DNA of 64,000 nucleotides from a phage: sequence record NC_094493.1; one strand, 5' to 3'. Positions 6,409 to 53,564 of the stretch are shown here, piece by piece. The notes beneath the pieces are model-generated. The model was given only the letters and a program-made list of their open reading frames with translations. It was not told the DNA's origin and did not search any database. The number at the start of each line of letters is the position of its first letter. Within the stretch, counting starts at the first letter, position 1. A program made the position numbers and the translations under genes.

Positions 6409-7219
6409 ACCTGGTCTCCAAAATGTATTGTAGTTCTTTCTTGCCTATACTCTTCATTCCAGCAGTCTTACCTGCTTCTTCTTGAAAAGAAGAATAGCAT
6501 TCAGCAAACACTCTGTCAACACCGTCAACTAAAGATTTTATGAAATATGTCGATTCTTCAGATTTTGGGTCATCATCTCCCAATACTTTTCCAGCATTAT
6601 ACCCAACACGTCTTACACAGAAGTCGTAGTCATCTGGAGTGCTAAAAGAAAATAACTTATTCTCTCCAATCTCTACAGGATCCCTATTACACGCCTTTTT
6701 CTCCCAAATTTGGAAAACACACGGCACGTCATAAGGTTTGCCATTAAGTAAAAACGAATTCTTAGGGCACCTTTCGCTGTAGACAAGGTGCATCGACATG
6801 TCCAGTTTGTTTGCAAAAAATATTTTTTCAAATGTCCGTGGCAAGATGAAGGCTATAGCCCCTCCAAGCTCTAGCAATGATGCACAATGGTTGAAGAATT
6901 TGCAAGCTAAAGATGAATTCTTGCCAAATGGTGGGTTACCTATGAAGACATCTGCCTTGGGATGCACCTCCAAGAAGTTTGCCTGAATGCACGGTGTTGG
7001 TCCTTCAAATTCAGGATCTGGTACTAAATCGTACGACAGTATCTCTGAAAATAGTTTTGAAAAAGAACCCCTTCCAGCAGAAGGCTCAACGTATGCACAA
7101 TTCCCATACTTATCTTTTACTTTACCAACAAGATATTCTGCATACTCAGGGTTTGTGTAATATTTGTCGTTGGACTCTTTCTTACTCAAAGTGCCTCCAA
7201 AAGGAAAAGGGAGGCGCAA
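6371..7219 (-). CDS. DNA N6-adenine (amino) methyltransferase
   Basis: Motif I-like EPSAGRGSF and motif IV GNPPFG. Confidence 0.65.
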   Translation of the reverse strand: MRLPFPFGGTLSKKESNDKYYTNPEYAEYLVGKVKDKYGNCAYVEPSAGRGSFSKLFSEILSYDLVPDPEFEGPTPCIQANFLEVHPKADVFIGNPPFGKNSSLACKFFNHCASLLELGGAIAFILPRTFEKIFFANKLDMSMHLVYSERCPKNSFLLNGKPYDVPCVFQIWEKKACNRDPVEIGENKLFSFSTPDDYDFCVRRVGYNAGKVLGDDDPKSEESTYFIKSLVDGVDRVFAECYSSFQEEAGKTAGMKSIGKKELQYILETRYDQKHRLDQRTH

Positions 7220-7234
7220 GCCTCCCTCTACTTG

Positions 7235-8218
7235 TTAGATTATCTGAATCAGGGTGTTTTTCATCTCTTCTCTGGTACGGATGTTGTTACGATCACGAAC
7301 AACAGATCCACAACCTTCGCAGCGGTATGTTTTAAATGCACTCAGCTGAGTATACGCCAAAGCTTCTTCCTCGTGAAGGTGTTCTCCACCACAGCGTGGG
7401 CAACGAACCTTTGGCTCCTCGTCCTGGTAGTACAATGACATGTTTGGGTGCTGCTTAGCAAACGGGCGAGCCAGCAAATACAAGCCTTCCAGAGACAGGA
7501 TATCACCAACATTATACTCCCGCATCTGTTTAAATGCCTCAAGATCGCCATGGACACACTTGATCCACATTTCAAATGTGTGGTCAATCAGTTTCTGTCG
7601 GGCCAGTTGGAAGTATTTGCATGCATACTCTAAAGTGTTTGCATTCAAACGGAATGCCTTCTTGATCATTTTAAGGGTGTCAACCTCTTTGTAGGGGCTT
7701 GTTGGAGGCAACCCGTGAAATGCAAATCGTTGGTTGGCCCACCCGCAGTCAAAACCTGAATTGTGGGCTACTGCGACATCGCATTTATCCAGATAATACC
7801 ACAAATCCTGAATCAATTCGAGATCATTGTGAATATCCTCATCCCACATTTTGTAATCTGGAAGAGCGCAGTCAACCACACTAGGGCTGTCTAACCACTT
7901 ACCTGCGAAAGTTAGCATATAGGGCATAACTTCAATACCACAGGTTTGAATGTTGGTCTTATAGTGCCCAAAGAACCAGCCGTTTGTTGGGGATGTCTCT
8001 GTATCATACACCCAAACTTTAGCACCTTTGTGCTCTTCAAGGAAGCGCTCCGTTGCTTCTCCTACAATCTCCGACATATTCTCTTGTGCACGTTTAAGCT
8101 GTAGTCGGATCCAGCTCTCACGTGACTCACGGCCTAAAAATTCACGAGCAATTTGTCTATTAGTGTATCCTTGTTGCTTTAGTGTTAAAATTTGCTCAAG
8201 AGTTAACTTTGTCATCAT
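7235..8218 (-). CDS. DEDD-family 3'-5' exonuclease with N-terminal HTH-like region
   Basis: VYDTETS (Exo I) and AHNSGFD (Exo II) motifs. Confidence 0.55.
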   Translation of the reverse strand: MMTKLTLEQILTLKQQGYTNRQIAREFLGRESRESWIRLQLKRAQENMSEIVGEATERFLEEHKGAKVWVYDTETSPTNGWFFGHYKTNIQTCGIEVMPYMLTFAGKWLDSPSVVDCALPDYKMWDEDIHNDLELIQDLWYYLDKCDVAVAHNSGFDCGWANQRFAFHGLPPTSPYKEVDTLKMIKKAFRLNANTLEYACKYFQLARQKLIDHTFEMWIKCVHGDLEAFKQMREYNVGDILSLEGLYLLARPFAKQHPNMSLYYQDEEPKVRCPRCGGEHLHEEEALAYTQLSAFKTYRCEGCGSVVRDRNNIRTREEMKNTLIQII

Positions 8219-8230
8219 CGTTAAGATTCC

Positions 8231-8452
8231 TTAGTAAAACTGAAGAATGTCTTTTAAAGCGAAGTCACGATATTCGCCCTTGTCTACATCGAAGGCACGC
8301 ATCAACCACTGCTCTTCTTTATGATACTCTGTAGAGCCAAACCATAAATTAGGCTCAGTAACGCAGCGATCTGCAACAACACCTTTCCAGTTACGGTATT
8401 TCATCCTGATCAGGACTGAGTCGCAAGGATTGAATACCTTTTTCATCCCCAT
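8231..8452 (-). CDS. Hypothetical protein (73 aa)
   Basis: ORF only. Confidence 0.3.
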   Translation of the reverse strand: MGMKKVFNPCDSVLIRMKYRNWKGVVADRCVTEPNLWFGSTEYHKEEQWLMRAFDVDKGEYRDFALKDILQFY

Positions 8453-8996
8453 AGAAATCTCTCTCCTCAGTTTTCTTTATAAACTCCTGCATGTAGAGCT
8501 CAATAGCCTCATGCTTGGTGCACTCTGGATTAATGACAAGATTGAGATCTGATTCTGCTCGTGCAATAATCGTAGCTTTAGAGCATCTCCTCAAGAACTT
8601 TGTCATATCATCTCTGTAGTTTTTGTGGAGCGGGAAGTCGCTGTAGTCTTTCTCCAAATAGTCAGCCATCCGGCGCAACGCCTCTGATAAACTGCAATCT
8701 GTATACTCGTTACAGTATTTCATCCAGTATTTAAGCACATACCCCTCAAAGGTATTAGTGCATTGAGACAAAACACCCCTGCAACGACCAGTCAGATGAT
8801 CATGATCTAAACAAGGCTTACGAAGTGGCTCGCACAAGATCGGATCAAGACCATCCTGCTCCTCTGACAATTCTTTTCGAAAGTTGGCTATGTCCTTAGA
8901 ATCTTTTAACCACCCGTTATGAACTGGGGCTTTGACAGCTTTCTTTCTTATTTTACGCTTTGCGATAATCCCTCCAGATGAGCCCTGCCTATCCAA
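8391..8996 (-). CDS. Endonuclease VII-like junction-resolving nuclease
   Basis: CLDHDHLTGRCRGVLSQCTNTFEG closely parallels the T4 gp49 HLDHDH...RGLLCNLCNAAEG zinc/active-site block. Confidence 0.65.
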   Translation of the reverse strand: MDRQGSSGGIIAKRKIRKKAVKAPVHNGWLKDSKDIANFRKELSEEQDGLDPILCEPLRKPCLDHDHLTGRCRGVLSQCTNTFEGYVLKYWMKYCNEYTDCSLSEALRRMADYLEKDYSDFPLHKNYRDDMTKFLRRCSKATIIARAESDLNLVINPECTKHEAIELYMQEFIKKTEERDFYGDEKGIQSLRLSPDQDEIP

Positions 8997-9577
8997 TAAG
9001 CATCTGCGAGATCGGCCTTACCTTGTACCAAATTGATCCCGTCTAGGAACCCAGGTTCAGATACTTCGCAGGCCTTAACCATCAACTTTTTATCCATTGT
9101 AACAGGTTTCTTCACAGTATGCTCTTTACCTGTCTTTTTGTCAAGCTTTTTCTTCTCCTCAAAAGCAAGTTCTTCAGGAAGATGACTACGAGCAAACTTT
9201 TTGGCAGTTGTTGGTGTCACTGTGTGGACCTTAAACAGGCCGTCATTTTCACAATCAGCTAAGGCATCCCAAAGCATAATTTCAAGACCGTAAAACAACC
9301 CAGCCAGTTCACGTGTGGCATCCCCGCGTGATCCAAAGGAAAGCCCTTCCATAACCACGGTGTCAACGTGATGCGTGTGGATATAATATCTGACCTGTTT
9401 GCAGATCCAGTCAATACGCTCAGCAGCTGTTGCAAAAGAAACCGTCCCTGGTTTCTTCTCTTTTGCAGATGAGCTTTGAGTTCGTAACACAACCTTATGA
9501 ACAGGCTTTCCATCGTCCCATACAACGCAAGCTGTGTGTGTCAACGACTGGTCTATGGATAATAGACGCTCTCTCAT
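8948..9577 (-). CDS. RuvC/RNase H-fold nuclease-like protein
   Basis: SIDQSLTHTAC and VVMEGLSFGS resemble the Asp and Glu strands of RuvC-like resolvases; weak. Confidence 0.4.
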   Translation of the reverse strand: MRERLLSIDQSLTHTACVVWDDGKPVHKVVLRTQSSSAKEKKPGTVSFATAAERIDWICKQVRYYIHTHHVDTVVMEGLSFGSRGDATRELAGLFYGLEIMLWDALADCENDGLFKVHTVTPTTAKKFARSHLPEELAFEEKKKLDKKTGKEHTVKKPVTMDKKLMVKACEVSEPGFLDGINLVQGKADLADAYWIGRAHLEGLSQSVK

Positions 9578-9909
9578 GCTTCCTCATCCTCCTCTCCTTC
9601 ATCAGGAGCATAAGCCTTATCTTTGAACAAGACGAGAGAGCAAAGCTTAACATCTGTTTCCACACTGGTGAACATGCATAACCGCTCGCCCTCAATCAAC
9701 TCACAATCCTCTTTTAAAACAGCAGACCATACACGGTCATCTGCGTAATCATCTGTGTACAGGATGTATGAAATAGTGTCATCTTCATACAACCGCCACA
9801 TACCTGTGGCAACAATAAATGTATTTTTTGTTTTAATGGTCCCTGTTGTATGATCATCCTCAAAAACAGCTTCCATAATTGCATTATCTACAGAATTTTT
9901 AGTCATCAA
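9574..9909 (-). CDS. Hypothetical acidic protein (111 aa)
   Basis: ORF only. Confidence 0.3.
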   Translation of the reverse strand: MMTKNSVDNAIMEAVFEDDHTTGTIKTKNTFIVATGMWRLYEDDTISYILYTDDYADDRVWSAVLKEDCELIEGERLCMFTSVETDVKLCSLVLFKDKAYAPDEGEEDEEA

Positions 9910-30838: not shown

Positions 30839-31693
30839 GTGAATAGAGTTGTATATCCAGTCGAGTATGATCCTCTATTAAGAGTTTTCAACAATCAGTT
30901 AAGTTTTTATCAATTTTTAGCACAATACAATCCAGAAATCAATGTTGGTTTATCAGCCCTGCTGCCACCAACAGAGTTCGTTATTGGAAGTGTTCACTAT
31001 CCATGCAGAACGATTGTAGACTTCTTCGAGAAGATTGCAAAACACACAGGCCTGCCAATTGATACTGGTATCTCAACTATCCGTATGGGTGTTATTCTTC
31101 TGTTCTTCACAGAGAACCTTGATGAAAGCACTTTAACACTGCAAAGCGGTGATGTCAATATCACACTCACCCCGTCAGTGTTTAAAGAGGTAGATGCCGC
31201 TTTCAAAGTTTCAGTGGCAGAGGGCCATCTGTGGGACCCTGAAGGGATGCCCAAAAAAGTGACCATAAACGATGAGCAATGCGATGTTGCTTATGCAGAA
31301 GATACCCAGACTTTCACCATTGAGTGGCCTAAGAAACGTTCTCAGGTTGTAAATCTTGGGCTGACTTCTACAGTAGCCCCAGAACCTGAACCAGAGCCGG
31401 AGCCACCTGTAGGCCCTACTGAACCTGGTGGTGGCAGTGAGGAATCACCAGGCCCGACCGCACAGGAGGGTACGGAAGGTACTGAACAGGATCCTGAGCA
31501 GGCACAAGAATCAAGATCTTCTCACGGCGATGTTGATGCCATACTGCACCAAGCCGCAGCTCTTAACAACGAAGATGACAAAAGTGGTTCGAAAGATGCA
31601 CTCCAAACCTTCGCCAAAGAGCACGGTGTTACCTTAAGTAAGGCAAAAACTTTCCAAAATATGATGAAAGATTTTGAGGCTGCACTGGCATAA
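30839..31693 (+). CDS. Hypothetical structural protein with PEPEPEPEP linker
   Basis: GTG start with AGGAG RBS; central Pro/Glu repeat. Confidence 0.35.
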   Translation: MNRVVYPVEYDPLLRVFNNQLSFYQFLAQYNPEINVGLSALLPPTEFVIGSVHYPCRTIVDFFEKIAKHTGLPIDTGISTIRMGVILLFFTENLDESTLTLQSGDVNITLTPSVFKEVDAAFKVSVAEGHLWDPEGMPKKVTINDEQCDVAYAEDTQTFTIEWPKKRSQVVNLGLTSTVAPEPEPEPEPPVGPTEPGGGSEESPGPTAQEGTEGTEQDPEQAQESRSSHGDVDAILHQAAALNNEDDKSGSKDALQTFAKEHGVTLSKAKTFQNMMKDFEAALA

Positions 31694-33949: not shown

Positions 33950-35326
33950 ATGCCATATTTAGATAAAGTGGTAGATGTTACAGTTAACCTCGGAACCCAG
34001 CCTATTGACACTGTAGGTTTCGAAACTCCCCTGTTCATCGCTATCCACAATAACTTTACTGAGCGAGCTCGCGTATATGCGGAGCTGGATCAGATGGTGG
34101 AAGATGGTTTCGCACAAGGCTCTGCAGCGTATGAGTTTGCAGCAAAAGCTTTTGGTGGTGTATTCCCTCCACAATACGTTATGATCGGCAGACAGGCCAA
34201 AGAAAAGACCACTGTAGATTTTAAAGGTATTGCTGCCGCAGCTGATACCGATGTTGTAATGACTATTGCAAAAGGTGACTACAATACTGCCTTGATAGTC
34301 CCTATCTCTGGTGGAACAGGGGCAACTCAGATCGCAGAGGCAATGAAGGAAAAAATTGAGGCTGATGATAGCTTAGACGGTATCACCGTGCAGGCCGAAG
34401 AAGGTGTTATCACCATCACTGGTGATTGTACTGTTGGTTATCATACTGGTAACTATACGATCAAAAACATTGCTAATAGTGAAAAACCTTCTACCGTGAT
34501 CGACAAGATCAACGCTGAGCAGGATAATTGGTACTTCCTGTGTCATGAAGACCACACGGACATTGAAGCGTGTGCTAAGTGGGCTCAGGCTAACTACAAA
34601 CTGCATGTCTACTCTACTGCAGAAGATGTGACTGGTAAAGACAGCAATATTGCCACTAAACTGAAAGCTGCAAAATATGACAGTGTTGGTATGTACGACC
34701 CTCGCGCAGACAAAGACTTCCCAGAGGGCGGTATTATCGGTGCTATGGCATCCAACGATCCGTCATACGGCGACAGCTTACACTTAAAACAGATGCCTGG
34801 TGTTCTTGCACCATCCCTGACCTTGACCCAGCGCATGGCGATTTGGGAGAACAACATTAACTTCTACAGAACAATCAACGGTGTTGGTGCTTTCTGGGAA
34901 GGTAAGTGTGCTTCAGGTCAGTATGCAGACGCTATTCGTTTTGCACACTGGATCAAGTTCAGATCTGAAGAGTCCATGTTTGGGTACATGCATCGTCGCT
35001 CCAATATGGGTTTAAGCATGAAGATGTCTGATGATGATCTTCCGGTTATCAAGTCTGTCCTGATGAACAACCCAATCAACACTGGCATTAAGAATGGTGC
35101 GATCCTGACAGGTTTCGACGAAGACAATAATGTGTTCTACGACCCGATCATCACAGTTCCTAAACGTGCAGAAATCCCAACCAATCAGTTGGCTGCTCGT
35201 GTTCTGGAAGGTGTGAAAGTAGAACTGGTGTATAATAACGCCCTGCACTTCGTTCGTATCCGGATCAACGTCCTTCTGGACAAAGTTGGTTCTAAATCCA
35301 CCAATGCTGTTGCAATGACTGAATAA
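33950..35326 (+). CDS. Putative tail sheath (or major tail) protein
   Basis: 458-aa ORF followed by a 157-aa tube-sized gene and a terminator; by position and size. Confidence 0.4.
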   Translation: MPYLDKVVDVTVNLGTQPIDTVGFETPLFIAIHNNFTERARVYAELDQMVEDGFAQGSAAYEFAAKAFGGVFPPQYVMIGRQAKEKTTVDFKGIAAAADTDVVMTIAKGDYNTALIVPISGGTGATQIAEAMKEKIEADDSLDGITVQAEEGVITITGDCTVGYHTGNYTIKNIANSEKPSTVIDKINAEQDNWYFLCHEDHTDIEACAKWAQANYKLHVYSTAEDVTGKDSNIATKLKAAKYDSVGMYDPRADKDFPEGGIIGAMASNDPSYGDSLHLKQMPGVLAPSLTLTQRMAIWENNINFYRTINGVGAFWEGKCASGQYADAIRFAHWIKFRSEESMFGYMHRRSNMGLSMKMSDDDLPVIKSVLMNNPINTGIKNGAILTGFDEDNNVFYDPIITVPKRAEIPTNQLAARVLEGVKVELVYNNALHFVRIRINVLLDKVGSKSTNAVAMTE

Positions 35327-35336
35327 GGAAGCCTAG

Positions 35337-35810
35337 ATGGAAACTCAAATTTTAACTCCTTATGCGTATGACCCTAAAAAGGTCAAACTGTATCTGATGC
35401 AGCAGCGTGTCACTGGCTTCGCTGCTGACACCAAGATTGTTGTTTCAAGAAACGAAGACAACATTTATCCTCACGTCGGTGTGGATGGTGAAATGTCTGC
35501 AGCTCTGTCCCGTAACCAATCTGGTGTTATGACTGTGTCTTTGCAGAACACTTCTGTATGGAACGCTTACCTTTCTGACTGGCAGAAACAGGCATCTATT
35601 ACTGGCCTGGTATTCTTCCCGGTTCTGCTGGAAGGTAGCCAGGGCCCTGGTATTTCCACAATCGGTTGGATCCAGAAACAGCCTGACCTGACTTACGGAA
35701 CCGAAGTAGGTCAACTGGACTGGGATATCGGTATTTTGGATGCATGGCTCAACCGTGATAACATTACTGGTGCTCTCACTGGCCTCGCAGGTCTTGCAGG
35801 TATTATCTAA
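35337..35810 (+). CDS. Putative tail tube protein
   Basis: 157 aa, immediately downstream of the sheath candidate. Confidence 0.35.
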   Translation: METQILTPYAYDPKKVKLYLMQQRVTGFAADTKIVVSRNEDNIYPHVGVDGEMSAALSRNQSGVMTVSLQNTSVWNAYLSDWQKQASITGLVFFPVLLEGSQGPGISTIGWIQKQPDLTYGTEVGQLDWDIGILDAWLNRDNITGALTGLAGLAGII

Positions 35811-35827
35811 GGGCACGCTTTAGCATA

Positions 35828-35854
35828 AGCCTCACCTTCGGGTGGGGCTTTTTG
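35828..35854 (+). terminator. Rho-independent terminator
   Basis: AGCCTCACC-TTCG-GGTGGGGCT followed by TTTTTG. Confidence 0.6.
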
Positions 35855-35865
35855 CTTTTATGGTT

Positions 35866-35894
35866 TTGACATGTGTGTTTGTTTTTGGTATCAT
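35866..35894 (+). promoter_or_regulatory. Sigma70-type promoter (TTGACA, 17 bp, TATCAT)
   Basis: Read directly from sequence, ahead of the zinc-ribbon nuclease gene. Confidence 0.45.
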
Positions 35895-35923
35895 AGGTTG
35901 TAGGAAAAGTAAAGGAGATAATC

Positions 35924-37774
35924 GTGGCTAGAAAACTAAGATCAAGCACAGAGGAGTTCATTGCTAAGGCTAGGGAAGTTCATGGGGATAAGTATTCTTA
36001 CGAAAAAACTGTGTACACAGGTTGTACAAAACCTCTGATTGTAACGTGCAGCTTGCACGGTGACTTCAAAATAACTCCGCACAAACACATCTCTGGTAAG
36101 CAAGGTTGCCCGGAGTGTGGTAAGCTGGTTCGGGCAGCGAAAAAGAATAAGGGCGCTCTGTTTGTAGAAAGAGCTAAAGCTATCCACGGGGATAAATACG
36201 ACTACTCCCTTGTGAATTACAAAACTTGCAAAGATCCTGTGGAAATCATCTGTAATAAATGTGGTAAACATTTTCTGCAAACTCCTGACAACCACATTAA
36301 CACCAAAAAAGGTTGCCCCGTTTGTGGTAAGGAGAGGTCAAAAGAGAAATTGGTGGCTAGAGGAAAAGAACGTAGAGGAAAACCGAATCTTAGGCACAGA
36401 TCTTCAACAGAAGAGTTTTTAAAGAAAGTTTTCAATAAATTCCCTCAGAACAGGGATTTGTTTGATTACTCACACGTTAAGTATACAACTTGTGAGGAAA
36501 AAGTAGAGATTCATTGTAAGGTTTGTGGGTACGTTATGCATCAAAAACCTTCAGACCATCTACAAGGGAAAGGGTGTAAGCGCTGTGCTGGAATGGCTAC
36601 TTCTGCGAAAAAAGTGCCAAGTTTTCAAGAGGTGGCAGAAAGAGCCAAAGCTGTACATGGCGACAAATACGAATATTTTGAAGATTCTTATGTGAATGCC
36701 TCAACACCTATGAAAATACGTCACAAAGAGTGTGGTAACATCTTCATGCAGCGTCCGGAGTTCCATTATGGTAAAGGCCAGGGTTGTCCTCGTTGTTGCC
36801 ATAATCAGTCAACTGGCGAGAAAGATGTGCTGTCATTCATTAAAGGTATATATAGTGGTGTTGTTGAAGAGAATGCGTGGGTTTTGGAAAACTTCAAATA
36901 TCCGTCTAAGAAAAAGATGGAATTGGATATTTACCTCCCAGAGTTAAAGCTTGCTGTAGAATACAATGGTGTCTTCTGGCACTCAGTTGATCGTAAAGGG
37001 AAAGGATATCATATCCAGAAGAGAAAGGCTTGTGAGCAACAAGGAATTCGCATGCTATCTATTTGGGAATGTGACTGGCATGATTCTCGTAAAAGGCCTA
37101 TCATTGAGAGATATCTTAAAAACGCTCTTGGTGTTAAAGATGAGAAGACAGTGTATGCAAGGAAGTGCACGATAAAAGATGTGGACAATAAAACTTACCG
37201 AGATTTTATGGATAAGAACCACATTCAAGGGTATGCAACTGCTAAAGAAGTGAAGAAGGGACTTTTTACAGCCGACGGTGAACTGGTAGCCTGTATGAGT
37301 TTTAAAATACTGAAAAACAAGGATCAAAAGGTAACACCTTTCGTCATGTGGGACATGGTAAGATATGCCACAAGCTGTAACGTTCCTGGTGGACGTAGCA
37401 AGCTGTTTAAACATATCCAAAAGGAGTTTAAGATGGATCATGTTCAATCTTTTCTTGATAGAGACTACTTTACGGGCGTGTCCTATAAAGAGGAAGATGG
37501 ATGGGTTCTGGCAGAGGACGATCAGGTGTCTATCAGTTTCTGGAGTTACCGAGGGGGTAGGATGTCAAGGCAAGCGTGGTGGAAGTCTAACATTCCAGAA
37601 ACATTGAAACGTCTTGGGTTGGACGAATCCTTGTATGATCCGGAGAAAACACAAGAGTGGAATGCCAAAAATGCAGGATGTCACATTTTGGAGAACAGTG
37701 GTAACTCTCGCTTCGAGTGGCACAGCGAGGAAGGTAAAAATGACCCTGTGTATTTAAACTGGTTGAAAGGTTAA
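35924..37774 (+). CDS. Repeated zinc-ribbon protein with C-terminal Vsr-like nuclease domain; putative free-standing homing endonuclease
   Basis: Four to five ~50-aa repeats (HGDKY...C...HG...GCPxCG); C-terminal LAVEYNGVFWH resembles Vsr/DUF559-type nucleases; GTG start. Confidence 0.45.
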   Translation: MARKLRSSTEEFIAKAREVHGDKYSYEKTVYTGCTKPLIVTCSLHGDFKITPHKHISGKQGCPECGKLVRAAKKNKGALFVERAKAIHGDKYDYSLVNYKTCKDPVEIICNKCGKHFLQTPDNHINTKKGCPVCGKERSKEKLVARGKERRGKPNLRHRSSTEEFLKKVFNKFPQNRDLFDYSHVKYTTCEEKVEIHCKVCGYVMHQKPSDHLQGKGCKRCAGMATSAKKVPSFQEVAERAKAVHGDKYEYFEDSYVNASTPMKIRHKECGNIFMQRPEFHYGKGQGCPRCCHNQSTGEKDVLSFIKGIYSGVVEENAWVLENFKYPSKKKMELDIYLPELKLAVEYNGVFWHSVDRKGKGYHIQKRKACEQQGIRMLSIWECDWHDSRKRPIIERYLKNALGVKDEKTVYARKCTIKDVDNKTYRDFMDKNHIQGYATAKEVKKGLFTADGELVACMSFKILKNKDQKVTPFVMWDMVRYATSCNVPGGRSKLFKHIQKEFKMDHVQSFLDRDYFTGVSYKEEDGWVLAEDDQVSISFWSYRGGRMSRQAWWKSNIPETLKRLGLDESLYDPEKTQEWNAKNAGCHILENSGNSRFEWHSEEGKNDPVYLNWLKG

Positions 37775-37775
37775 A

Positions 37776-37804
37776 TTGACAATGCACCATAATCATGGTA
37801 AAAT
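37776..37804 (+). promoter_or_regulatory. Sigma70-type promoter (TTGACA, 17 bp, TAAAAT with upstream TG)
   Basis: Read directly from sequence. Confidence 0.5.
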
Positions 37805-37847: not shown

Positions 37848-38321
37848 ATGGCTATAAACTTTAGACCTACAACAGAGATTGATTTAGCAGGGCACAACTT
37901 TGTGATCACCCACTGGGGACCGATGAAAGCAATGAAAAACATGCCTAAAATCGGTAAGATTGTGGCTGTCCCGCTAGGTGCTATCGGTGGATCTATTATC
38001 TCTGGTGGTCAGAATATGGCAGAGGTCCTTCCTACTGCTCTGGCTTACCTGTTCCAAGAACTTGATGATAATTCTATTGAAGAGTTATTTAAAATCTTGT
38101 TCGAAGATATTACCGTAGATGGTGTGGATAAGCTTAACCCGGATGTTGTGTTTGCAGGGCATCTGCTGGAGATGATTAAGCTGGCAGGTAAGGTTCTGGA
38201 GGTTAACTACGGCTGTTTTTTCACACAAGACGGTTTAGGAAGCCTTCTGGAGATGTTACAGCAGATGGGTATGATTCAGCAGGTGAACAACCTGGATCAG
38301 ACTCCGGAAGAGCAGGAATAA
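37848..38321 (+). CDS. Putative tail assembly chaperone
   Basis: 157-aa ORF directly upstream of the tape measure gene; contains a slippery heptamer. Confidence 0.45.
   Translation: MAINFRPTTEIDLAGHNFVITHWGPMKAMKNMPKIGKIVAVPLGAIGGSIISGGQNMAEVLPTALAYLFQELDDNSIEELFKILFEDITVDGVDKLNPDVVFAGHLLEMIKLAGKVLEVNYGCFFTQDGLGSLLEMLQQMGMIQQVNNLDQTPEEQE
38216..38222 (+). other. Candidate -1 programmed frameshift site (T TTT TTC)
   Basis: X XXY YYZ heptamer in the zero frame; the -1 frame is open from about 38207 to 38581. Confidence 0.45.
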
Positions 38322-38332
38322 GTAAGGTTGTT

Positions 38333-38581
38333 GTGAGGGCCAGTGAGTGGGCAGCCAAGAACAGTTCACTCAACTGGTTCGACTTTCTTTGGTGCAGGGT
38401 GCTCAAGAATTTCAAAGGGGAAAATTTTGAATCGCTAAATCTTGCAGATATGGCGTATTTCCTGAAGCTCTGTGAGTATCTTGATATCGAAGAATTCCTA
38501 GATACCGTCCAAAACAGGGAAATGGAGCGGGAGCAGAAGGCTGCCGCAGCTGCTGCGAAAGCTAAGCGCAGGAGAGGATAA
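38333..38581 (+). CDS. Downstream ORF of the chaperone, probably expressed as a frameshift extension
   Basis: Same frame as the -1 frame after the slippery site; GTG at 38333 is the track's nominal start. Confidence 0.4.
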   Translation: MRASEWAAKNSSLNWFDFLWCRVLKNFKGENFESLNLADMAYFLKLCEYLDIEEFLDTVQNREMEREQKAAAAAAKAKRRRG

Positions 38582-38635: not shown

Positions 38636-40972
38636 ATGGCTACAAACAAAATAGTTGCCACAACAGTCAACAAGATTGGCTTTGAGATAGAGAACTCCTC
38701 CTACAAAAAAGCTGTAGAGAAAATTCGCAGTATTGGGAGGGAGTTCAGGAAACTGGGCGAGGATTTTAACTCAGCCAACCCCATGAGTAGATGGCAGGCG
38801 GTAGCTGTTAAAACCCAGCAGACAATGCAGAGGGTTGCCAGACAGCAATCTCAGGCAAATGCTAAACTGCACAGAGAGAGCATAGCACAGGCCAAGAAAG
38901 AGGCTGCAGTAAGGGCTGCAATAGAACGTAGGGAGAATGCGAGACGTAAACAAGCTGTAGGTAATCTTACCGCTAAAAATCCAGAAATGGCTAGGATGCG
39001 TAAGTTCTACCAGCAGCAAGCTAAAGAGGCCAAAAAGGCTGCCAAATCTGCACCAGTGTCTTACGGTGGTTATAAGGCACCTAAGGCAAGAGTTTTGGCT
39101 AATGCCAAATCTTTCAAATATATCCCCGGTAACCCTAATATGGGTGGTGTGGCTTCCGACCCTAACCTTGTGAAAGCTCAGACAGCCGCTATGAATCGTT
39201 ATCATAGACAGCTAAGAAGAGACAGTAAAGCTGGTATGGATAATAAGCTTATGTCGGATCGTGAGGCAAGGAGAACCCACCTCTACAACTCCGCGATAAG
39301 ACTTTCTGCCAAGTATGGGGCCGGATTCCGTGGAAGCTTGCCAGGATACTCAGAGTTAGAGTCCAGGTTTGCTCGCGGGGAGATGAAGAAGTCAACCTTT
39401 AACGCCCACCTGTCAGCGCTGCAGTCTGGGTTTAAAAGCGCCACCAGCCAAACGCTTACACTAGGTGATGCCATGAGAGACCTACGTAGATCTGTTATTA
39501 ATGCAACAGCTGCGTATACGGCTTTTTCTGGATTTGCTGCGGTTAACAGATCCGGTCACATGATGGAGGGGGCAAGTGCTGCTCTTACTGCTGTTACTGG
39601 AGATCCAAACAAAGCCAACAGTGAGGTTGCGTTTGTCCAGCAAGAGGCTATGCGTCTTGGTTTTGATCTCAAATCTGGTCTTCAAGGTTACGCCCAGATG
39701 TCGGTAAACGCCAAAAACCAGATGACAAATCAGGAAGTGCATGAGCTGTTTTCTGCATACTCACAGTATGCTGCTGCTTATGGTGCCGATGAGGTAAAAT
39801 ACCAGCGCGGTATTATGGCTATCCAACAGATGCTAGGCAAGGGACAAGTAATGTCCGAAGAACTGAAGCAACAACTTGCTGAAGCATTGCCCGGTGCATA
39901 CGAACCTTTTATCAAGGCCACCAAAGAGGCTTTTGGTCTTTCTGAACTCTCCATGGATCAGTTCATGGACATGATGAAGAAAGGTGAGGTTAAAACAGCC
40001 AAGATCATGAAGTATGTGGCTAAGTACATGAACGAGGCATCTGCAGCTGGTTATGAAAGAATGCAGAAGTCTAACGTGCTGGCAGAAAACAGACTGAAAA
40101 CCTTTATCGAACTGACTCGTCAGAAACTGTTCACCCGTTGGTCTGACGAACTAACAGAGTTCTATTATACACTGATCCGCACTGGTGAGACTCTGCAATT
40201 TATGTGGGATGCCTCTGGTGATTTTGTTAGCGGGTTTGTGAGAGGCCTTAACTGGGTAGTTGGTGAACTGAACAACACTATAGTCAAGATCCGCATGTTT
40301 TTCCTTGAATGGGGGATTAAATGGGGGTTCATAACAGCTAAGACGAAGGAATATTCTGAAGAGCTTCATGACACCTTTAGCTATGCTAAATGGGCAGGGT
40401 TTGCTGCTGCCATCATGCTGGTCGTCAACGCCCTAACAAAAGGTTTTGTCATGGCATCTATGCTTGTAAAAACCTTTAAATTCCTTAGCTCTCTAAGGGG
40501 TGCAGCTGGAGTAGCAGGTGCCGCTACTACAGAAGGATCTGGTGGTGGCGCTCCGGCAGGAAAAGGGGGAGGTGGCCTCAAGACACCTGGTGGCAAAGTT
40601 GGTCTGCTCGGTAAGCTAGGTATTATCGGTACAATACTAAGCGCCGGGGAATTATTTAATGACCGTTACAACCCACTAAGTGAAAGAAATCAGCAGCTGG
40701 ATACTATCAGCGATATGATTCGCAAAGATATCATATCGGGAGGTAACGGGTTTGTTAATCCTTTGGACACCTTACCGGGCGGGACTCTTCCGTTGCCGGG
40801 TGGCCCTGGTTTTGCTTCTCAATTAAGAACTATGGAAATGCTACCTTTAGAGATCAGTGATGGGAAAATCACGATTTCAATAGATGAGGGTGAGTTTAAC
40901 AAAATATTTGATGCAAAACTTGAGTGGGAGAACAATAAAGATATCAACTTCATGTCTACCGACCTTTGGTAA
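38636..40972 (+). CDS. Tape measure protein
   Basis: 778 aa, long basic/alpha-helical N-terminal region, Gly-rich hydrophobic C-terminal segments; follows the chaperone pair. Confidence 0.6.
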   Translation: MATNKIVATTVNKIGFEIENSSYKKAVEKIRSIGREFRKLGEDFNSANPMSRWQAVAVKTQQTMQRVARQQSQANAKLHRESIAQAKKEAAVRAAIERRENARRKQAVGNLTAKNPEMARMRKFYQQQAKEAKKAAKSAPVSYGGYKAPKARVLANAKSFKYIPGNPNMGGVASDPNLVKAQTAAMNRYHRQLRRDSKAGMDNKLMSDREARRTHLYNSAIRLSAKYGAGFRGSLPGYSELESRFARGEMKKSTFNAHLSALQSGFKSATSQTLTLGDAMRDLRRSVINATAAYTAFSGFAAVNRSGHMMEGASAALTAVTGDPNKANSEVAFVQQEAMRLGFDLKSGLQGYAQMSVNAKNQMTNQEVHELFSAYSQYAAAYGADEVKYQRGIMAIQQMLGKGQVMSEELKQQLAEALPGAYEPFIKATKEAFGLSELSMDQFMDMMKKGEVKTAKIMKYVAKYMNEASAAGYERMQKSNVLAENRLKTFIELTRQKLFTRWSDELTEFYYTLIRTGETLQFMWDASGDFVSGFVRGLNWVVGELNNTIVKIRMFFLEWGIKWGFITAKTKEYSEELHDTFSYAKWAGFAAAIMLVVNALTKGFVMASMLVKTFKFLSSLRGAAGVAGAATTEGSGGGAPAGKGGGGLKTPGGKVGLLGKLGIIGTILSAGELFNDRYNPLSERNQQLDTISDMIRKDIISGGNGFVNPLDTLPGGTLPLPGGPGFASQLRTMEMLPLEISDGKITISIDEGEFNKIFDAKLEWENNKDINFMSTDLW

Positions 40973-53139: not shown

Positions 53140-53564
53140 TGAGCACACACCCTCGTTTAGTGGATTGGCAAGAAAGATTGTGGAAAGTGTTTGACGAAGA
53201 GGCCACCATACCTTTTGAATGGGGATTCCACGATTGTTGCACCTTTGCGGCTAAGTGTGTTGATGCCCAATACGGAACAGATTTTCTTTCCAACTTCGAA
53301 GGAACGTATAAAACAGAGTTGGAAAGCAAAAGATGGTGCATGCTTCGTTTCAAAACTACACACCTGCCTACTATTTTTGATCTCTTTATGACTCGGCTGG
53401 ATACTCCTAAACAGGTTCAGCGTGGAGATATTGTCATTTTCGAAGGTCTGAACGGGCTCACCGCTGGTGTGTTCTGGAACAACCAGATTTGGGCGAAAGG
53501 TGATAAAGGGGTCTTTATGTTCGACATGAAAGATTCTATCGTTGTTGATGTCTGGAGGTATTAA
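53139..53564 (+). CDS. Putative tail assembly protein with NlpC/P60-like Cys-His core (lambda K-like)
   Basis: Start moved to ATG after GGGAGG RBS; FHDCCTF Cys motif; directly precedes the J-like gene. Confidence 0.4.
   Translation: MSTHPRLVDWQERLWKVFDEEATIPFEWGFHDCCTFAAKCVDAQYGTDFLSNFEGTYKTELESKRWCMLRFKTTHLPTIFDLFMTRLDTPKQVQRGDIVIFEGLNGLTAGVFWNNQIWAKGDKGVFMFDMKDSIVVDVWRY

Follow-up and report, generated by a model that had tools for sequence, protein, structure and literature searches.

The 64,000-nucleotide stretch analysed here (the window; one strand of sequence record NC_094493.1) comes from a Vequintavirus, an rV5-like coliphage, and carries in the gap between its tail-tube gene and its tail-assembly-chaperone gene an open reading frame (ORF) of 616 residues with its own expression signals (Table 1). 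We consider it probable that this self-contained cassette of promoter, ribosome-binding site and ORF represents a homing endonuclease gene, free-standing and of Hef-like (Vsr-like, “EDxHD”) type. The layout that an earlier note on this DNA had described is borne out: the ORF is preceded by a sigma-70-type TTGACA-17-TATCAT promoter, with an AGGAG 8 nt 5′ of its GTG start; the tube gene is followed by an intrinsic terminator (10-bp stem with six GC pairs, 4-nt loop, T-run); and the chaperone gene has its own TTGACA-17-TAAAAT promoter, which begins 2 nt past the endonuclease stop codon. In relatives with an empty site the terminator sequence is kept (it is annotated as a terminator in phage Gotham) and the chaperone promoter is identical. 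The ORF is not a chance one, because a word-indexed protein search with its product returned 3,479 homologues and PHROG 559 matches the protein over its full length (E = 2e-122); PHROG 3339 also matches full length, and an NCBIfam search of the protein gave no meaningful match.

The N-terminal part of the protein is an array of zinc ribbons. Self-alignment resolves four repeats (residues 6–70, 73–140, 157–226, and 230–296) with a period of about 60–70 residues, each composed of a helix, a GDKY.Y motif, a β-hairpin, and four zinc ligands in the pattern [C/H]xx[C/H]...CxxC (C42/H45/C62/C65, C110/C113/C131/C134, C198/C201/C218/C221, and H267/C270/C288/C291). An AlphaFold2 model has one helix plus β-hairpin unit per repeat. 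The repeat corresponds to Pfam DUF723, which the window protein matches at 33.9 bits (cut-off 20.9 bits), and among 34 homologues DUF4379 is found in 32 and CapR in nine. The earlier note had counted four to five modules of about 50 residues ending in CPxCG; the modules are indeed zinc ribbons, but there are four of them, they are longer, and only two end in CPxCG, the others ending in CKRCA and CPRCC. The array is presumed to be the sequence-recognition part of the protein. It is not the unusual device that had been supposed, since repeated DUF723/DUF4379/CapR arrays have already been published as a DNA-binding solution of phage homing endonucleases (PMC10055350).

The array is followed by a nuclease domain that contains the motif LAVEYNGVFWH (residues 343–353). 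That this is a Vsr-type nuclease, as first read, stands; its supposed C-terminal position does not, as the domain is central. The profile search proposed in the earlier note does find a nuclease fold: with a profile of the 34 homologues, the homing endonuclease I-Bth0305I (PDB 3r3p), which is also the best structural match of the domain, is detected by sequence at E = 1.2e-5. The profile was required, a single-sequence search of the PDB giving the same entry marginally, at E = 0.12. Asp335, Asn348, and His353 align with the catalytic Asp196, Asn208, and His213 of I-Bth0305I and are conserved, and Glu299, Glu333, Asp335, Glu346, His353, His363, and Lys366 are invariant among the 34 homologues, which extend down to 34% identity. 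The architectures differ, I-Bth0305I being intron-encoded in recA, with N-terminal NUMOD/helix-turn-helix motifs, a C-terminal nuclease, and no Mom-like domain (PMC3239194). Two other nuclease assignments were rejected. PHROG 559 is labelled an HNH endonuclease, but no HNH motif or Pfam match occurs and the fold is Vsr-like, so the label is a misnomer. A T5orf172/GIY-YIG nuclease would be expected to match T5orf172, MUG113, or GIY-YIG in Pfam, and none of these appears among the Pfam matches of the window protein or in the leading families of its 34 homologues.

Contrary to the earlier note, the protein does not end with its nuclease: a 217-residue domain of GNAT fold follows, which had been overlooked. 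Its top Foldseek match in the PDB is Mom (8bv8, E = 3.5e-6), about 100-fold better than any other GNAT protein. The window protein itself has no match to Pfam Mom (PF25680) at E ≤ 1, whereas the cut-off of that family (27.1 bits) is passed by a homologue of the same architecture and 34% identity (P0104, 33.2 bits) and by a stand-alone protein of 251 residues that is 38% identical to the C-terminal domain (P0138, 30.6 bits); the domain is thus a divergent Mom relative by transitive similarity and not a direct member of the Pfam family. In an alignment of the domain profile with Mu Mom, whose score as a single hidden Markov model comparison is low (6.7 bits, E = 3e-4), Arg480, Ser492, Asp512, and Tyr521 fall opposite Arg111, Ser124, Asp149, and Tyr159 of Mom, and the SF.D motif ending at Asp512 falls opposite Ser146-Phe147-Asp149. 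Over 145 diverse representatives Arg480 is conserved in 100%, Tyr521 in 98%, Ser492 in 80%, and Asp512 in 79%; the position of Mom Arg151 is Asp514 in the window protein and arginine in 52% of the representatives. In Mu Mom, an adenine N6 hypermodification enzyme that has recently been shown to use glycyl-tRNA in modifying DNA (PMC13219725), residues Arg111, Ser124, Asp149, Arg151, and Tyr159 have been reported to be essential or important (PMC13219725, PMC7261163).

Besides the fold, the C-terminal domain and Mu Mom have a VQSFxD...G..Y motif in common, and the domain looks enzymatically competent. The two differ in context: Mu Mom stands alone and shields the entire Mu genome from restriction, whereas in the window protein a nuclease and a site-reading array precede the domain in the same chain. 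We would guess that at the bound site the domain acts on adenine in the DNA, or binds it, and so serves self-protection or target engagement. To our knowledge, no modification activity is known for any nuclease–Mom fusion of this type. The nuclease and the Mom-like domain invariably adjoin one another. Searched alone, the C-terminal domain yields 8,945 cluster representatives at E ≤ 1e-3, and among the best 150 of these nearly all are proteins of 430–830 residues in which it is C-terminal. A search of a phage collection with the same domain matched 338 records, many labelled “Hef-like homing endonuclease” and others “nuclease/acetyltransferase”; we found no literature linking “Hef-like” with “acetyltransferase”. 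The Mom-like domain belongs to the core that is conserved throughout the Hef-like family.

The window protein is assigned by its sequence to this family, the tie to the Hef type being provided by database annotations and by the placement of Hef-type endonucleases in the Vsr-like family (PMC3239194). By BLASTP, residues 333–496 match a “putative Hef-like homing endonuclease” of PhaR5, a T4-like Acinetobacter phage, at 40% identity over 169 residues (E = 6e-29), and tblastn matches include annotated Hef-like genes of phages CP30A, CPX, AR9 (Bacillus), and PTm5 (Tenacibaculum). The core of nuclease and Mom-like domain matches thousands of further phage proteins as well. Homologues in Salmonella phages that are 42–49% identical are labelled “homing endonuclease” in RefSeq, and Campylobacter phage genomes carry 9–11 Hef-like copies each. 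The prototype, Hef of phage U5, reportedly goes back to Sandegren et al. in 2005. A review describes this Hef as an endonuclease that cleaves nrdB (PMC2988022). Like the Hef-like genes of T4-related, Campylobacter, and jumbo phages, the window gene is free-standing, lies in an intergenic gap of a lytic myovirus, and has a sporadic distribution over several loci, and its contiguous Vsr-like nuclease and Mom-like C-terminal core recur in the PhaR5 protein. The N-terminus of the latter is different, with no DUF723/CapR-type Pfam match, where the window protein has four such zinc ribbons.

Two further groups of phage proteins are comparable in part. The T5orf172 (GIY-YIG-related) endonucleases of Vibrio phage ICP1 and others, described by Barth, Dunham, and Seed, have the same type of repeated zinc-ribbon array, and their CapR/DUF723 modules duplicate and swap as those of the window alleles do (see below; PMC10055350); in the window protein, however, the nuclease is Vsr-like, the array is N-terminal to it, and a Mom-like domain comes after. 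The Mom-REase fusions of jumbo phages, as described, likewise pair a nuclease of restriction-endonuclease fold with a Mom-family domain and are often present in several copies per genome, but their authors have read them as restriction-modification-like conflict systems (PMC7824862). The population pattern of the window gene is of the homing type: its locus is fixed, its alleles are mosaic, and the empty site is a deletion scar.

The presence of the gene at this locus is sporadic. A 6.1-kb query around the gene matched 128 phage records, of which only four have a homologue at the tube–chaperone site (A135 and A147, 87% amino acid identity; JEP1 and HMD-6, 65%), leaving about 97% of the close relatives without it; among the matches listed, all others with full flanks span 4,225–4,227 bp and thus contain no insert. 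The closest relative by its flanks, A6-1 (99.5% identical), has an empty site. Such a comparison with relatives lacking the gene had also been suggested in the earlier note; with the large majority empty, the gene is not a conserved structural component. A role in tail structure or assembly was rejected on the same count, the tube and chaperone genes and signals of the relatives without the gene being identical. Where the gene is present it is far more diverged than its flanks (nucleotide identity of gene and flanks 90.2% and 96.5% with A135, and 77.5% and 93% with JEP1), which we count as selfish behaviour. Two diverged metagenomic phages have orthologues (74% and 70% identical) in the same tube–chaperone gap, each with its own terminator and promoter, and a 50% identical paralogue in another phage adjoins nrdD, a classic homing-endonuclease locus.

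The location of the gene also bears on the possibility that it has been domesticated as a CapR-like regulator, in which the array would bind the promoter region of the tail operon and tune tail gene expression while the nuclease has ceased to matter. The satellite protein CapR represses transcription and is derived from a homing-endonuclease zinc-ribbon DNA-binding domain of this type (PMC10055350), the window gene lies directly upstream of the chaperone promoter, with its stop codon 2 nt from the −35 hexamer, and there is no terminator between the two genes. We nevertheless regard such a role as highly improbable: the residues of the nuclease and of the Mom-like domain are invariant or nearly so across the family, which is unexpected after domestication into a pure DNA binder, and most relatives have the identical chaperone promoter and no gene.

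Some observations were made beside these loci. The nrdD gene (anaerobic ribonucleotide reductase) directly upstream of the paralogue (L007/L008:589–3877) is fragmented into five or more ORFs (176, 102, 81, 169, and 116 residues), and a small DUF723+MUG113 ORF lies near it; the fragmentation could stem from introns or from decay in an endonuclease-rich island. The two metagenomic phages with the gene in the tube–chaperone gap have an extra ORF of 108 residues, with its own promoter and terminator, between the tube and endonuclease genes (L005:3578–3904, L006:3579–3905); it has no Pfam match and is absent from the window. In Campylobacter phage CP30A two tandem Hef-like copies adjoin the tail sheath gene (L011:1601–4823), and F-LimVIII adjoins the tail tube gene of Dickeya phage LIMEstone1 (PMC3296691); the sheath/tube neighbourhood of unrelated myoviruses may be a recurrent landing zone for Hef-like genes.

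The empty allele consists of GGTTTTGACA, CACGTTCTTGAATTGC, and TTGAAAGGTTAAATTGACA in succession, with the middle 16 bp as the empty site, and it has retained parts of the gene. Genomes with the empty site keep the −35 hexamer of the endonuclease promoter, though not the −10 hexamer, and the empty site reads in the frame of the gene as FLNCLKG and a stop, compared with YLNWLKG and a stop in the window and YLDWLKG and a stop in JEP1, that is, the last approximately seven codons. With the register fixed, 8 of the 11 nt that precede the shared flank are the same as in JEP1, a level that only 0.12% of the 11-mers of the window reach (background rate 0.0012). As the YL(N/D/E)W motif is also present in orthologues with different flanks, it is intrinsic to the gene family. 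Since the −35 hexamer and the last codons remain there, the empty site is a deletion scar, so that in most rV5-like phages the locus is occupied by a deletion derivative of the endonuclease gene. The earlier note had called the gene inserted; presence and absence at the locus are confirmed, but which way the change went is uncertain, given that the empty allele is itself a deletion scar left by this gene. From the scar, the gene is best regarded as an old resident of the locus that has been repeatedly lost, and presumably regained, and not as a one-off recent insertion.

The occupied alleles are mosaic. Between the window and A135, amino acid identity is 100% in the Mom-like domain and 97% in the nuclease and falls to 87% in repeat 4, 53% in repeat 3, and 25% in the linker, rising again to 82% in repeat 2 and 89% in repeat 1. 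Repeat 3 of the window is instead 90% identical to repeat 3 of the metagenomic L005 allele, which is otherwise 62–82% identical. The DNA of repeat 2 (window 36161–36325, 165 bp) is 70–76% identical to parts of other endonuclease genes at different Vequintavirus loci, and about 75% identical to DUF723 modules of GIY-YIG-type genes there, with matches annotated as a homing endonuclease (WalterGehring) and a GIY-YIG nuclease (SophiaRose). These patterns indicate that zinc-ribbon modules have been swapped among the alleles, and the repeat 2 matches suggest that modules are exchanged between different nuclease families within the genus.

Deletion and module loss could also be taken to mean that the window gene is a decaying remnant that was once mobile, is now inactive, and has so far escaped deletion in this lineage. 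In most relatives deletion has already removed the gene, a degeneration phase is part of homing-endonuclease life cycles, and JEP1 and HMD-6 carry shorter alleles without repeat 1. Against this, the 616-residue ORF, the promoter, and the ribosome-binding site are intact, all the invariant residues of the family are present in the window protein (as they were defined on it), and the C-terminal 218 residues are 100% identical to those of the A135 allele, pointing to recent exchange or constraint. Since the ORF is intact and the catalytic residues are invariant, the remnant and the regulator are both less likely readings, and we give very little credence to a remnant.

The interpretation of the cassette as a free-standing, selfish homing endonuclease gene, which the earlier note had offered from the letters alone, is thus supported. 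Observed are the identities of the domains, intact catalytic residues, sporadic presence at one fixed locus, the scar, and mosaic alleles; cleavage, the target, and homing we infer. The four zinc-ribbon modules would read a long DNA site, and the central Vsr-like domain would cut the DNA of co-infecting relatives without the gene. The target would most likely span or adjoin the 16-bp scar junction, this being the only sizeable difference between occupied and empty alleles, and homing would predict that only the empty allele is cut, within GGTTTTGACACACGTTCTTGAATTGCTTGAAAGG or close to it. Recombinational repair from an occupied genome would then copy the cassette in, and later loss by deletion would give the scar allele of most relatives. 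The near-identical flanks of the two alleles leave two options, a target that includes the scar junction or an intact target to which the carrier gives some other protection; under the second option the Mom-like domain could matter.

Several points weigh against homing. All activity assignments rest on homology. The fifth EDxHD residue of I-Bth0305I, Asp222, aligns with the invariant His363, giving an “EDxHH” variant, in what is a gapped alignment of a short loop, and the characterised I-Bth0305I lacks the Mom-like domain that is conserved here. The scar shows that the empty allele arose by loss, so the sporadic pattern could partly reflect retention and ordinary recombination. No clear co-conversion tract or clean gradient surrounds the gene in comparisons of the window with A6-1, Gotham, JEP1, and A135; between the window and A6-1 the nearest 600 bp on the left contain only four differences and the nearest 1 kb on the right contains none. 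Finally, a Mom domain fused to a nuclease, as in the Mom-REase fusions of jumbo phages, has been read by others as the “modification” half of a restriction-modification-like weapon (Iyer, Anantharaman, Krishnan, Burroughs, and Aravind, 2021; PMC7824862).

The flank variants themselves comprise a mosaic cluster of single-nucleotide polymorphisms 640–970 bp to the left and one allele at −58 that is shared with A135. Across the 3-kb left flank the window and A6-1 differ at 19 positions, ten of which fall in this cluster (34901–35234, at the 3′ end of the sheath gene, 640–970 bp from the junction), and at several of its positions the window agrees with Gotham and not with A6-1; the cluster has the look of a short recombined stretch that has nothing to do with the edge of the cassette.

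The published proposal for the Mom-REase fusions, carried over to the window gene, would make the protein a single-chain restriction-modification-like weapon whose Mom-like domain hypermodifies the phage’s own adenines while the array-guided nuclease destroys unmodified host or competitor DNA. The Foldseek match to Mom, the homologues that pass the Pfam Mom cut-off, the strong conservation of the equivalents of essential Mom residues, and the constant contiguity of nuclease and Mom-like domain are all in keeping with this proposal, as are the almost identical flanks of occupied and empty alleles, since a target in the flanks would require epigenetic self-protection. However, about 97% of the close relatives propagate without the gene at this locus; the gene is present or absent at one fixed locus, has left a deletion scar, and has spread to several loci in multiple copies, all of which is typical of homing endonuclease genes; a four-module array implies a rare, long target and not genome-wide restriction; and Hef-type enzymes have been described as homing endonucleases. 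We therefore consider a weapon unlikely, although it would be compatible with homing, as marker exclusion and homing often coincide. A variant of the homing endonuclease reading, which we advance tentatively and hold to be possible without being probable, is that the Mom-like domain is active and is delivered by the zinc-ribbon array, so that one chain would combine a site-directed adenine hypermodifier with a nuclease, marking its own site and cutting the unmarked site of a rival.

As a homing endonuclease the gene is nothing out of the ordinary: lytic phage genomes abound in such genes, near homologues already bear the annotation of homing endonuclease, and neither this reading nor the type of DNA-binding array is new to the literature and annotations. 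What is worth passing on is the Mom-like domain with its conserved active-site residues, the empty site as a deletion scar, and the module-swapped alleles. The locus records both phases of the homing cycle, in occupied alleles with swapped modules and in an empty allele that is a visible deletion scar, and a Mom-like domain whose catalytic-site residues are conserved is present throughout the Hef-like family. If that domain is active, DNA hypermodification would be linked to selfish-gene immunity, and the protein might hold a naturally targeted DNA-modifying module; if “modify self, cut rival” is true, the mechanism would be common to thousands of Hef-like endonucleases.

Table 1. Features of the endonuclease cassette and its neighbours in the window.
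Feature	Position	Strand	Basis or remark
Tail-tube gene	35337..35810		Upstream of endonuclease gene; annotation in relatives
Tail-tube intrinsic terminator, left cassette boundary	35827..35858	+	Hairpin 35827–35850, then T-run
Endonuclease-gene promoter, sigma-70-type, TTGACA-17-TATCAT	35866..35894	+	Consensus scan, 11/12 positions, TG extension
Segment replacing 16 bp CACGTTCTTGAATTGC of empty-site relatives	35874..37762	+	Junction alignment vs A6-1 and Gotham
Endonuclease coding sequence, 616 residues, GTG start, stop included	35924..37774	+	ORF list, PHROG 559
Four DUF723/DUF4379/CapR-type treble-clef zinc-ribbon modules, residues 6–296	35939..36811	+	
Vsr-like / EDxHD-type nuclease domain, residues ~297–399	36812..37120	+	
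Mom-like GNAT-fold domain, 217 residues, residues ~400–616	37121..37771	+	
Chaperone-gene promoter, TTGACA-17-TAAAAT, right cassette boundary	37776..37804	+	Consensus scan, 11/12 positions
Tail-assembly-chaperone gene	37848..38321		Downstream of endonuclease gene; Phage_TAC_15

The identity of the upstream neighbour as a tube gene is supported by a metagenomic orthologue that matches Pfam Phage_Tube_PhiTE. The base composition of the endonuclease gene is slightly lower in GC (0.40–0.42, compared with 0.44–0.48), which is not diagnostic. A tblastn search for paralogues elsewhere in the 64-kb window found none, with nothing below E = 2; a weak match lies at 53164–53483, among ORFs that include one of 1,279 residues. 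The chaperone region comprises an ORF of 157 residues (37848–38321) and, 11 nt on and in another frame, one of 82 residues (38333–38581). The tape-measure protein is a single ORF of 778 residues in the window (38636–40972). In the metagenomic relative L006 (ENA ERZ27302833 k141_1320198) its gene appears split: a TMP_3 ORF of 414 residues, an HNH_3 endonuclease ORF of 174 residues, and an ORF of at least 365 residues follow one another at 6695–9866, and a second homing endonuclease, intron-borne or gene-splitting, may lie inside this tape-measure gene. Upstream in the structural module of the window, an ORF of 284 residues (30839–31693) contains a PEPEPEPEP/acidic low-complexity stretch.

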